This document shows positions 17,903-37,710 of a stretch of DNA of 64,000 nucleotides, piece by piece. Made by a program: the position numbers and the translations under genes. Origin of the DNA: a phage; sequence record PZ229304.1; one strand, 5' to 3'. The notes below the pieces were generated by a model that saw only the letters and a program-made list of their open reading frames with translations, was not told the DNA's origin and did not search any database. Position 1 is the first letter of the stretch. Each line of letters begins with the position of its first letter.

Positions 17903-18368
17903 TTTAACTACAATCAAGGTGTCTGATCTACCTGTAACAACATCTGTTTCAGACACAGATTATTTTGTAACAGATCAATCAGGCATCACTAAGAAAACAT
18001 CATTACGTGTTCTTCTTGCGGGTGCTGGTGTTACACGAAATCGTCTTTCTGCAAGGGGTACTGTTACAAATACCCTAGCTTTAGATATTAGCACGGCAGA
18101 GTATTTCTCTGCCACTTTATCTAGTCCAACTTGCAGTATTTCATTTAGTAATGTTCCAGTTACAACTAACATTGTTCAAAACTTTACGCTATCCCTACGT
18201 CAAGGCAGTGGAGCAAATAAAGTAACGTGGCCTCAATCTGTTAAATGGAGTTTTGGTCGCGCTCCTGTTTTGAGTTATAAGCAGGGAGCTACAGATATTT
18301 TTGAATTTGTTAGTTATGATAATGGAGCTACCTGGATAGGTAGTTTAGTGATGGCAGGAGTGATTTAA
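17895..18368 (+). CDS. structural protein (hypothetical)
   Basis: 157-aa ORF translationally coupled to neighbours. Confidence 0.3.
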   Translation: MADLTTIKVSDLPVTTSVSDTDYFVTDQSGITKKTSLRVLLAGAGVTRNRLSARGTVTNTLALDISTAEYFSATLSSPTCSISFSNVPVTTNIVQNFTLSLRQGSGANKVTWPQSVKWSFGRAPVLSYKQGATDIFEFVSYDNGATWIGSLVMAGVI

Positions 18369-34890: not shown

Positions 34891-37710
34891 ATGTATCCTA
34901 TTCCTTTATTTATGTCAACAACATCAGCTTCAGTAGTAACAGCTACATCTATAACCACTTCCTCTATTGGTATTGCAATAGTTGGTAGTAAAAAGCAACT
35001 GACATACACAGTTTCACCGGAAGATGGTGCGTTATTTGATATAGATTTTTCATCTTCAGATAATACCAAAATGGTTATAGATAATAATGGTATGATGGAG
35101 TTTGTTGCTGAAGGTGGTTTTGATGCAATAATGACAGCTAAAAATAATTTAGGTGCTGTCTTAACTGATCAATCTGGTGGTTATGCTTCAGAATTAAGTG
35201 TGTACACTGAAAGTCTATCTGCTATGGATGTAGGCACTACTCAACAGTTGGTTGCTACAATCAGTCCAGAAGGTGCTAAAGACCTTCCAGATATGGTAAT
35301 TACGTACACCACAACAGATCCAGAAGTGGCTACTGTAAGCCCTACAGGATTAATAACTGCTCTTAAAGATGGTAATTGCCGTATAGGTTGTACTGCAACG
35401 TATCAAGGAACAGTTGTGGCCTCTGATAGTTCTTATTTAGGTGTTAATGCTATTCCTGTTATTTCTAATGTAACAGCCGTGGCAAACAGCTATGGAGACG
35501 TTCGTGTTGCTTGGGATGTAGCTGATCCGCTAGATGGTGATACTTATACTGTAGAAGTATTAGATTTAAGTAATAATAGTGTTCAGTGGACTACAACAAC
35601 CACGAATACTCATGCTTACTTTGATATCTCTGACTCTATTCCTCTTTATGGGTTTGCTCCAACATACCTTAAAATTAGCGTTAAGAGCACCAAAGCAGCA
35701 GCCGTTATCTTTAATAACTCAATAGCTACAGATGATTCATTCATTAAAGAAGTTATTGTCTTTGCTGGACAAGATAACGTAAATGCACACTTTACAGAAC
35801 TATCTGGTGCAAATAAAGCAGCAATGAGTAGCACAACAGCCCGTAATGCATATGCTACGCAACGTGGTTTAGCAAATGCTGAAGTTCTTCCGTTAAATAC
35901 AGCTTCTGGATCATCAGCAGCAGATAAATATGCTGACGATAAAGCTGGAACAGGAACACCAGACAACTACTGGTATGATCTGGATAACACAGCAGATGGG
36001 CCATGCTTAACTAACTTTATCACTAAAGTCACACCTTATGCAAGTAAGGTTAAAGCCATTATTTGGGGACAAGGTGAAAATGATGCTGTATCAGCATCTT
36101 CAACTGTTGCAGGTAGATACAGTAACACTACACGTTACCATGATGCTACGATAGCTATCTTTGATAAGATGCGTACAATAGTTCCTGCTTCTCAAGCAAA
36201 AATTGTTTGGCAGATCCTAGGACGTTCTTATTTATATGGTGTAGAAGTCAATGGTGTGGATTGGCAGAAATACAGAAATGTACAAAGAGCCATCTCTACG
36301 GCACGTGATGATGTTATCATTGGTTCTTGGGTAGATGGTGCTGAACGTTACAGTGGTTACGTTTATGAAGAAGGTATTGATGGTCGTATCCATTATATTT
36401 CTTCTGTATACCAGACAGCAGCTACAAAACTTGCTAAATCAGCAGCAGACGGTACAGACCTAACATCAACGTCACCTGTTTGGGTTGATATGGCTGTTCC
36501 AACTGGAGCAACAGCTACTTCCCAACCTAATCAAGATACAATTTTAGCATGGGATGCTCAAGGCTATAGTAAACACTACTTCCGTAATATTAACGTCTTA
36601 ACCGCATCTGTATTAACTGAACAAACGCTTAATACGAACAGTTATACGTTTACCTATGCAGATCAAGTAGCACAATATGGTTTTGCAGCAGGAACTACTA
36701 TATTTGATGTTGCATATTATGACGAAGCAAATGATGTGTTATCTCCTTTAGTACGTTTTAATGTTAACGTTACAGCAGGAACCGAAGAAGATAAACCTGT
36801 CGTGATGGACTATGATTTGACGCAAGAAACTCTCCCATCAGATGTTAAGGTTAATGGTGGGAACTCTTTTGCTCGTGCTTCTGGAGATAAACTTGTAGCC
36901 ACTAACACCTTGGTTGCTCCGTTGGAGTATGTTGGTACTACCCCTGTAGGTAGACGTGTAACAGCTAACACAGCTACACAAATTTTTGTCAACAACGCCT
37001 TAACAAGTGCAAGCCCGTGGGTAAAGACCAACTTAACTGTTGCAGCTTCATCTGATAACTCTCCGGCTGGAACTACTGCTAATGTATTCAAATTAACTCC
37101 GACTACAACCTCTGGTAGTCATATCTTAACTGCAACATATACTAACGCGTACAACATAAATGCCGGACGTAACTGGTCTGCCTCTGTTTTCTTGAAAGCG
37201 AACGGGATTACTAAGGCTAAACTAAGATTAAAAGCAGGAACTGAAGTTAATGAGGGTACTTTTGATTTAGCAGCAGGTACATTCACAGGAAGTGAAGCTA
37301 ATATTATATCTATGGGCAACGGTTGGTATCGTGCTATTCTGCATAAAACAGGGATAGCCAAACAGTCCTTCATAAGTTTTGAAATAATTGCCTTGGATGC
37401 AACTGGTGCAGAGATTTTCGCTGGAAATGGTACTAGTAACCTTGCAGTTTGGTTGCCACAGCTTGAAGGTGCTTCTACAGGAGAAACATCAAAAGCTGGA
37501 TCGCCTTATGTCTGCACATATCCTGGAAATTTAGGAGGAGTATCCTTCACTATACCAAGGAACGGACATACTGGTGTGGATGTTTACTATTCCAACGGAG
37601 ACGTTGTTCGTGACGTATTCTCTGGTACGGCATCTACTTGGACAATAAACTACTCCAGCTTGTACGATTGGGGATCAGTCTTTATTACAGGTTTGAAATA
37701 TTACGACTAA
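34891..37710 (+). CDS. tail fibre protein with Ig-like (BIG2-type) domain and possible SASA/SGNH-like esterase domain
   Basis: 939 aa; BIG2-like segment (VGTTQQLVATISPEG...TYTTTDPEVATVSPTGLITALKDGNCRIGCTA); VIVFAGQDNVNAHF resembles the GQSN motif of sialate-O-acetylesterase-like domains; last gene of the plus-strand block. Confidence 0.45.
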   Translation: MYPIPLFMSTTSASVVTATSITTSSIGIAIVGSKKQLTYTVSPEDGALFDIDFSSSDNTKMVIDNNGMMEFVAEGGFDAIMTAKNNLGAVLTDQSGGYASELSVYTESLSAMDVGTTQQLVATISPEGAKDLPDMVITYTTTDPEVATVSPTGLITALKDGNCRIGCTATYQGTVVASDSSYLGVNAIPVISNVTAVANSYGDVRVAWDVADPLDGDTYTVEVLDLSNNSVQWTTTTTNTHAYFDISDSIPLYGFAPTYLKISVKSTKAAAVIFNNSIATDDSFIKEVIVFAGQDNVNAHFTELSGANKAAMSSTTARNAYATQRGLANAEVLPLNTASGSSAADKYADDKAGTGTPDNYWYDLDNTADGPCLTNFITKVTPYASKVKAIIWGQGENDAVSASSTVAGRYSNTTRYHDATIAIFDKMRTIVPASQAKIVWQILGRSYLYGVEVNGVDWQKYRNVQRAISTARDDVIIGSWVDGAERYSGYVYEEGIDGRIHYISSVYQTAATKLAKSAADGTDLTSTSPVWVDMAVPTGATATSQPNQDTILAWDAQGYSKHYFRNINVLTASVLTEQTLNTNSYTFTYADQVAQYGFAAGTTIFDVAYYDEANDVLSPLVRFNVNVTAGTEEDKPVVMDYDLTQETLPSDVKVNGGNSFARASGDKLVATNTLVAPLEYVGTTPVGRRVTANTATQIFVNNALTSASPWVKTNLTVAASSDNSPAGTTANVFKLTPTTTSGSHILTATYTNAYNINAGRNWSASVFLKANGITKAKLRLKAGTEVNEGTFDLAAGTFTGSEANIISMGNGWYRAILHKTGIAKQSFISFEIIALDATGAEIFAGNGTSNLAVWLPQLEGASTGETSKAGSPYVCTYPGNLGGVSFTIPRNGHTGVDVYYSNGDVVRDVFSGTASTWTINYSSLYDWGSVFITGLKYYD

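Follow-up and report, generated by a model that had tools for sequence, protein, structure and literature searches.

Introduction

Phi92-like myophages of the genus Justusliebigvirus, dubbed a "Swiss Army knife" in the literature, adsorb to their hosts with an unusually rich set of tail proteins. Published accounts class phi92 gp141, gp142, gp143, gp150 and gp151 among glycosidases, tailspikes or fibres and count five receptor-binding proteins, and gp150 is known as a crystallised tailspike with colanic-acid-degrading (colanidase) activity. The multivalent adsorption apparatus of phi92 as a whole is reportedly the subject of Schwarzer et al. 2012. Here we analyse its counterpart in sequence record PZ229304.1, of which a stretch of 64,000 nucleotides, hereafter the window, represents the first 64 kb of the genome of a phi92-like myophage of the genus Justusliebigvirus. 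Six large open reading frames (ORFs) on the + strand of this window, at 18368-37710, encode proteins of 958, 719, 794, 804, 653 and 939 amino acids (aa), in exact agreement with an earlier reading of the unannotated DNA (the original prediction), which had described them as an array of at least six fibre or spike proteins. We find that this region is very probably the host-adsorption module of the phage, laid out as a late operon shared with baseplate wedge genes, bearing heads for different glycans and retuned by cassette exchange.

Two described systems frame the comparison. In a cryo-electron microscopy (cryo-EM) study of phi92 published in 2026, fibres of three types are mounted together on gp145, a wedge protein as is gp146; fibre I is L-shaped, a scaffold arm with gp143 at its tip, fibre III is gp147, and only fibre-shaped candidates were screened for fibre II (PMC13450770). 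Contraction in phi92 is triggered, according to the literature, via fibre III and a rearrangement of the wedge. The other system is phage N4, where gp64 and gp65 (PDB 9lc0, 9yf4) are structural subunits of a non-contractile sheath and gp65 is itself the receptor-binding protein. N4-type phages and Justusliebigvirus alike depend on the glycan NGR ("N4 glycan receptor"), which is required by Bas60-62, and the BASEL papers noted the homology to N4 of the gp142-type fibre, tying it to recognition of enterobacterial common antigen (ECA), an assignment later refined to NGR.

A phi92-like adsorption module

Gene order across the region is that of PaulScherrer and of the type phage phi92 (gp140 to gp153), with near-identical gene lengths. 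The six large ORFs, in a region with very small intergenic gaps, fall into two blocks of three, and the 4.6 kb between these blocks holds baseplate-wedge, short-tail-fibre and chaperone genes, so that wedge genes stand between two fibre-gene blocks as they do in phi92. A tblastn comparison with phi92 gave amino acid identities of 100% for gp140, 99.8% for gp141 (the 958-aa protein), 98.5% for gp142 (719 aa), 98.6-100% for gp145-gp149, 99.3% for gp150 (804 aa) and 98.3% for gp151 (653 aa), that is, 98-100% throughout. At the gp143 position, by comparison, the 794-aa protein shares with its phi92 counterpart a conserved N-terminal anchor, behind which lies a variable spike cassette. Two further differences from phi92 are an extra 101-aa orphan spike module, which phi92 lacks, and an intact 939-aa gene, which in phi92 is split and truncated as gp152/gp153.

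Searched by megablast, the region matched 187 phage records, 51 of which (Justusliebigvirus/Phapecoctavirus-type) span 80% of it or more. Escherichia phage PaulScherrer (Bas60, Justusliebigvirus, Stephanstirmvirinae) comes first, at 97.6% identity over 90% of the region; across this phage and further isolates of its genus (alia, KMB37, PHB05), DNA identity is 97-98.6% over 85-90%. ORFs of 650-960 codons in DNA of 38% GC, all with strong homologues, are far above chance expectation. The exact sequences of five of the six large proteins, the 794-aa spike included, are absent from a collection of 15 billion proteins.

The reading of the array as a multivalent receptor-binding set for several surface glycans agrees with the literature on the phi92 lineage. 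It needs correction in three respects. Two concern the 958-aa protein and the esterase-like domain of the 939-aa protein and are described below; the third is that most of the set is highly conserved and not host-variable, cassette exchange being seen only at the gp143 slot and, less markedly, in the 939-aa gene.

The exchanged tailspike and its probable target

The 794-aa tailspike (23421..25805, +) occupies the slot that holds the endosialidase gp143 in phi92. Its layout comprises an anchor at aa 1 to ~50, a Tail_spike_N domain of the TSP1/Gp66 type at aa 93-150 (Pfam 1.1e-20, above cut-off), which together with the anchor makes up an N-terminal particle-binding module, and a predicted catalytic domain at aa ~180-794 with a rare right-handed beta-helix. 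The protein aligns with phi92 gp143 over aa 1-54 only (94%) and with its PaulScherrer counterpart over aa 1-171 only (86.5%). Homology in blastn breaks off at 23909 and returns at 25811 for PaulScherrer, and breaks off at 23572 and returns at 26166 for phi92; the GC content of 23871-25805, nearly the interval between the PaulScherrer breakpoints, is 44.7% as against 38.1% in the window. Judged by breakpoints and composition, 23910..25810 (+) is a horizontally exchanged, higher-GC cassette of 1.9 kb that encodes the beta-helix. The phi92 endosialidase has a C-terminal chaperone domain, whereas the domain found here in the same slot is unrelated to it; an endosialidase-type C-terminal chaperone on the 794-aa spike was considered and rejected, there being no Pfam match and the conserved beta-helix domain reaching to the last residue.

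The cassette is rare. It is present in no record of a collection of 50,697 phage genomes, in which the domain that it encodes has no homologue above 26.5% identity. Blastn of 5,426 complete E. coli genomes found no relative of the catalytic domain, nor did searches of GTDB (one genome per species) and IMG/VR. A set of 5.8 billion proteins contains only six close relatives, and the nearest, at 99.9% amino acid identity, lies on a metagenome-assembled phi92-like contig of identical synteny (ERZ19289410), the only other place where the cassette was found. With a limit of E <= 1e-30, an exhaustive HMMER search of 1.84 billion representatives returned 13 proteins, and with a limit of E <= 1e-3 it returned 309; among the distant relatives are matches to the pectate-lyase-like family PF12708, borne behind anchors of the P22 Head_binding, T7 tail-fibre or Tail_spike_N type. 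Going by these profile searches, the domain forms one minor branch within the large superfamily of beta-helix tailspikes; Pfam assigns no catalytic family to the 794-aa protein.

The fold was addressed by modelling. An AlphaFold2 model built from a 7-sequence alignment has a mean pLDDT of 66, with residues 180-790 mostly at 70-90, and displays a right-handed parallel beta-helix that, in view of the shallow alignment, is predicted with moderate confidence. Foldseek placed it closest to 8x8m (3.3e-15), with further matches to 7w1c, 4ru4, 4y9v, 9k4a, CBA120 TSP1/3, 6e0v, LKA1 gp49 and HK620. In the known beta-helix tailspike depolymerases (Klebsiella K64-ORF41, PDB 8x8m; LKA1 gp49; CBA120 TSP1-4; P22/HK620) the helix follows a TSP1/Gp66-type N-terminal domain, an arrangement likewise predicted here, and modules of such tailspikes, the 794-aa protein among them, are swapped between phage morphotypes; in structural alignments with any solved spike, however, sequence identity is at most 14%.

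Clues to the target come from the company kept by homologous catalytic domains, which follow other anchors in three settings: an autographivirid podophage resembling ECBP5, and contigs L008 and L009. Contig L008 carries podophage-like genes for terminase, nozzle and lysis, and its backbone has no match in the phage collection. Immediately downstream of the tailspikes of these two contigs are genes of the Acyl_transf_3 or Acyl_transf_3+SGNH type (L008 12580-13617, - strand; L009 2607-4595, - strand). Both loci look like temperate-phage or prophage contexts, and the neighbouring acyltransferases are candidate lysogenic-conversion enzymes that would modify the O-antigen, the glycan seen by the spike. 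Because two homologues adjoin O-antigen acyltransferase-type genes, we infer that the 794-aa spike would target an O-antigen. DNA searches for the host serotype of the prophage homologues yielded only partial matches in E. coli ST2747 and no clue. Variability at the gp143 slot of phi92-like phages is already published. Phage Eryne (PQ529420), a Justusliebigvirus whose genome was linearised at the terminase gene and whose identity to PaulScherrer exceeds 98%, has been reported with a presumed O16-specific spike, and a growth advantage is reported on E. coli K-12 in which the O16 O-antigen was restored.

Conserved spike, fibre and enzyme-like proteins

The 804-aa protein (30434..32848, +) matches PDB 6e0v, which is phi92 gp150, with E = 0 over aa 180-804, and resembles the host protein WcaM (1.1e-28) as well as phrog_6117 ("colanic acid degradation"). 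Its near-identity to the characterised gp150 identifies it by sequence as a colanic-acid-degrading tailspike. The two pectate-lyase-like beta-helices that had been foreseen in the array can accordingly be placed, one in this protein and the other in the 794-aa spike, where the AlphaFold2 model, Foldseek and PF12708 matches in distant relatives point to it. Next in order, the 653-aa fibre (32890..34851, +; GTG start) matches Tail_spike_N (3.3e-21), Collagen (4.9e-8) and Fibritin_C (1.4e-3) in Pfam and phrog_15437 with E = 0. The collagen-like and fibre repeats that had been noticed in it are plainly visible in the translation, as four short collagen-like G-X-Y runs and three "SAYQ..." fibre repeats, accompanied by a fibritin-like segment and a C-terminal knob.

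The 719-aa protein (21253..23412, +) opens with a Calx-beta domain (Pfam 1.6e-9), also correctly foreseen, and continues with NCTSP_N (7.5e-21) and TIM-barrel_NCTSP (1.8e-81), whose scores of 74.6 and 274.3 bits compare with a cut-off of 27. These are the modules of the N4 sheath and receptor-binding proteins: the closest solved relatives are N4 gp64 (PDB 9lc0_M; 3.1e-27) and N4 gp65 (5.1e-12). The TIM barrel is predicted to be a glycan deacetylase or hydrolase.

The 958-aa protein (18368..21244, +) has no Pfam, NCBIfam or PDB-profile match even at E <= 10, whether searched as a single sequence or as a 38-sequence profile. Sequence thus places it in no CAZy or Pfam glycoside hydrolase (GH) family, and only fold comparison gave an assignment: an AlphaFold2 model based on an alignment of homologues (pLDDT 86, pTM 0.80) adopts a GH8-like (alpha/alpha)6-barrel with inserted beta-sandwich domains. 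Conservation is unusually strong, with homologues about 45% identical in Pseudomonas, Stenotrophomonas phage Philippe, Gluconobacter, and marine and enterobacterial prophages, and the fold is also seen in proteins of other phages that are annotated as tail fibres. Within the family, E68 is invariant inside "TTEGQS", and D294/E296 stand inside "ASDAE". Their surroundings presumably resemble the GH8 "SEGQ" catalytic-acid motif and the PROSITE GH8 signature, a resemblance that we take as a lead only. On the strength of the model, the protein is a putative globular GH8-like glycosidase, enzyme-like and neither fibre nor spike, so that the count of at least six fibre or spike proteins, borne out by the domains of the other members, does not extend to it.

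The 939-aa protein and its serine-less SASA-like domain

The 939-aa modular fibre (34891..37710, +) had been credited with a BIG2 Ig-like domain and a possible acetylesterase. The former is clear: the N-terminal ~190 aa contain Big_2 Ig domains (aa 112-170, Pfam 2.6e-14). PaulScherrer encodes the same protein intact and 98% identical. Alleles in related phages keep this N-terminal part and carry RCC1-propeller heads in place of the SASA-type head and, because the alleles share only that part, the N-terminus would constitute a further anchor with an exchangeable head.

The esterase claim fares less well. Residues ~285-535 form a SASA/SGNH-like domain, which Pfam SASA matches at E = 0.017 (15.2 bits, below the curated cut-off of 24.8), the best relative reaching 1.6e-5. 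A profile of the domain matches the two tandem SASA-like domains of N4 gp65 (9lc0_I) at 1.6e-37. At the GQSN serine, the Block I nucleophile of the SASA/SGNH family, the 939-aa protein reads GQDN (aa 293-296, D295; nucleotides 35767-35778). Asp occupies this position in all 31 myophage clusters examined, whereas N4-like relatives have GQSN or GQSH. In the regions where Block III (GxND) and a C-terminal catalytic His would be expected, "GQGENDA" and "RIHY" align across relatives as far as sequence goes, the His being Gln in two of the 645-aa relatives. Because Asp replaces the nucleophile Ser, the label "tail carbohydrate esterase" is doubtful; the domain itself is there, and may be a binding module and not an enzyme.

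Further on, residues 694-863 match NF048003 GTA_spike_fiber, a gene transfer agent (GTA)/phage head-spike-fibre family (3.8e-18), and plausibly form a distal binding tip. In phi92 (NC_023693, 31321-32983) the gene has decayed: what is left of it is gp152, equivalent to aa 1-198, and gp153, equivalent to aa 335-628, while aa 199-272 and 629-939 are gone. Going by its genome sequence, phi92 is without one fibre found in most of its relatives.

Fusion proteins and a gp65-like unit

Proteins from other phages join modules that are separate here. A 1,557-aa protein from a Logan contig (P0221) is gp141-like at residues 13-955 (45%) and gp142-like at residues 963-1538 (51%, without Calx-beta), in the order of the adjacent genes of the window (18368-23412). 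N4-like relatives of gp65 (P0057, P0058, P0064, P0065) join the gp142-type NCTSP_N and TIM barrel to the 939-type SASA domain, in either order, and N4 gp65 itself has the SASA-like domain twice. By Rosetta-stone logic, since their modules are fused in other phages, the 958-, 719- and 939-aa proteins would work as one functional unit, probably a glycan-recognition unit akin to N4 gp65. The architectures differ: in N4 the modules belong to a sheath around a short tail, whereas here they are distributed over separate proteins of a contractile-tail baseplate.

A more far-reaching proposal, which we offer as a speculation more likely wrong than right, is that the three proteins are a "disassembled N4 gp65" dedicated to NGR and correspond to the unassigned fibre II of phi92, to the arm of fibre I, or to both. 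In it, the SASA-like domain would have turned into a non-catalytic glycan binder, and the 794-aa spike would supply a new depolymerase specificity, possibly for an O16-type O-antigen if the genome is that of Eryne.

A model of adsorption and its alternatives

The evidence for a host-adsorption module suggests the following sequence of events. The adsorption proteins would be co-assembled at the periphery of the baseplate wedge, with the wedge proteins gp145/gp146 as the docking platform for the fibres. Each enzymatic head would bind and cut or modify its own glycan, be it colanic acid, an NGR- or ECA-type glycan, or a strain-specific O-antigen or capsule, and successive glycan processing would carry the virion through the glycan layers until the 326-aa short fibre, which is Mu GpS-like, could engage the lipopolysaccharide core and bring about sheath contraction. 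Host range would be retuned by swapping cassettes behind a conserved N-terminal anchor of ~50-160 aa, and in this phage the 1.9-kb higher-GC cassette would have supplied the rare beta-helix, most likely directed at an O-antigen.

Several observations weigh against this account. For all six proteins, presence in the virion is a prediction from the genes, and the enzymes among them are putative. The 958-aa protein is globular in its AlphaFold2 model and without fibre-like shape; the SASA-like domain, lacking the serine, is possibly not an enzyme; the model of the 794-aa protein is of moderate confidence for the reasons given above, and the target of this spike is read only from the gene neighbours of relatives 49-50% identical to it. 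The cryo-EM study of phi92, moreover, assigned only gp143 and gp147, leaving gp141 and gp142 unmentioned and fibre II unassigned (PMC13450770).

Could only some of the six be true receptor-binding fibres, the 958- and 719-aa proteins being baseplate-decorating enzymes or scaffold arms, such as the L-shaped arm of fibre I? We regard this as unlikely, though not negligible. It would suit the compact, enzyme-like barrel of the 958-aa protein with its lack of fibre features, the family's ~45% identity from Pseudomonas to marine bacteria, which argues against host-variable receptor binding, the phi92 fibre I arm that bears gp143 at its tip (PMC13450770), and the status of the N4 homologues gp64 and gp65 as structural sheath subunits. 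Both proteins have carbohydrate-active folds, however, gp65 doubles as the receptor-binding protein of N4, and the literature ties the gp142-type fibre to NGR/ECA dependence; besides, scaffold and glycan-processing roles are compatible with each other. A far more radical version, which denies the large proteins any receptor-binding or enzymatic function and makes them internal or structural components only, was named in the original prediction as what would overturn it. That gp141 and gp142 do not feature in what was modelled of the phi92 map would fit such a role, and nothing else specific speaks for it, whereas all six proteins contain a carbohydrate-active or adhesin-type domain and the 804-aa protein is the counterpart of gp150, a colanidase known from both biochemistry and structure, so that we consider this version extremely improbable.

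The choice of glycan for the 794-aa spike is a narrower matter. A capsular (K) polysaccharide in place of an O-antigen, giving the spike the same role as the phi92 endosialidase, is suggested by the slot itself, which in phi92 holds a capsule depolymerase, and by the top structural matches of the model, which are the Klebsiella capsule depolymerases 8x8m (K64), 7w1c (K1 lyase) and 9k4a. Those matches also include O-antigen spikes (LKA1 gp49, CBA120 TSP1/3, HK620), though, and the beta-helix fold cannot separate capsule from O-antigen targets; what tells against a capsule is that two homologues adjoin O-antigen acyltransferase-type genes in apparent temperate-phage or prophage contexts and that the anchor of one distant relative is of the P22 Head_binding type. 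A capsular target accordingly strikes us as doubtful, and we retain the reading of the region as a host-adsorption module whose exchanged spike would be directed at an O-antigen.

Neighbouring genes and genome features

The module begins with a 157-aa small tail-fibre protein (17895..18368, +), the orthologue of phi92 gp140, which matches phrog_9017 ("tail fiber protein") at 1.3e-69. The interval that separates the two blocks of large ORFs contains, besides an 81-aa membrane protein and a small lipoprotein-like ORF, a 101-aa ORF, two baseplate-wedge proteins, and a short tail fibre with its chaperone. The wedge proteins (26406..28525, +) are the orthologues of phi92 gp145 (495 aa, 100% identity, phrog_6) and gp146 (209 aa, 98.6%, phrog_4056). 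They are followed by the 326-aa short tail fibre, orthologous to gp147 or "fiber III" (99.4%, phrog_4465), and the 183-aa assembly chaperone, orthologous to gp148 (100%, phrog_136), at 28539..30083 (+).

The 101-aa ORF (25859..26164, +) encodes an orphan tailspike N-terminal module that matches positions 1-92 of the 548 of phrog_11182 (3e-40), and also phrog_7992 (2.4e-52). PaulScherrer and the metagenome relative ERZ19289410 also have it. The ORF is probably the remnant of a second spike gene at a recombination hot spot, or its product may instead plug a docking site that is not in use.

A terminator-like hairpin (37714..37737, +), with a 10-bp stem including five GC pairs and a T-run after it, closes the late structural operon, and the genes 3' of it lie on the minus strand, convergent with the structural block. 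GC skew changes sign at about 38 kb, where the structural (+) block gives way to the replication (-) block. A promoter scan was uninformative (59 sites against 63 expected), and ARAGORN found no tRNA genes in the 64-kb window. Position 1 of the window is the GTG start of the first coding sequence (1-2085, +), and the genome start is as in the record of phage AV123; the genome record is re-oriented so that its first gene opens it. We presume this first coding sequence to be the large terminase.

Significance

Earlier publications already cover the array, its multivalent character and the variable gp143 slot, and the system is a known one with a new spike allele. Besides that allele, three things are new here: gp141 has been assigned a fold, the SASA domain is seen to lack its serine, and fusions allow three conserved proteins to be grouped. 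A rare beta-helix depolymerase domain now stands behind at least four different phage anchors and could offer a new specificity for host-range engineering or glycan typing. A SASA domain fixed without its serine in a myophage lineage counsels caution over the common annotation of such proteins as tail carbohydrate esterases. The fusion evidence, finally, groups gp141 and gp142 with the gp152/153-type protein, and this bears on the assignment of fibre II in maps of the phi92 baseplate.

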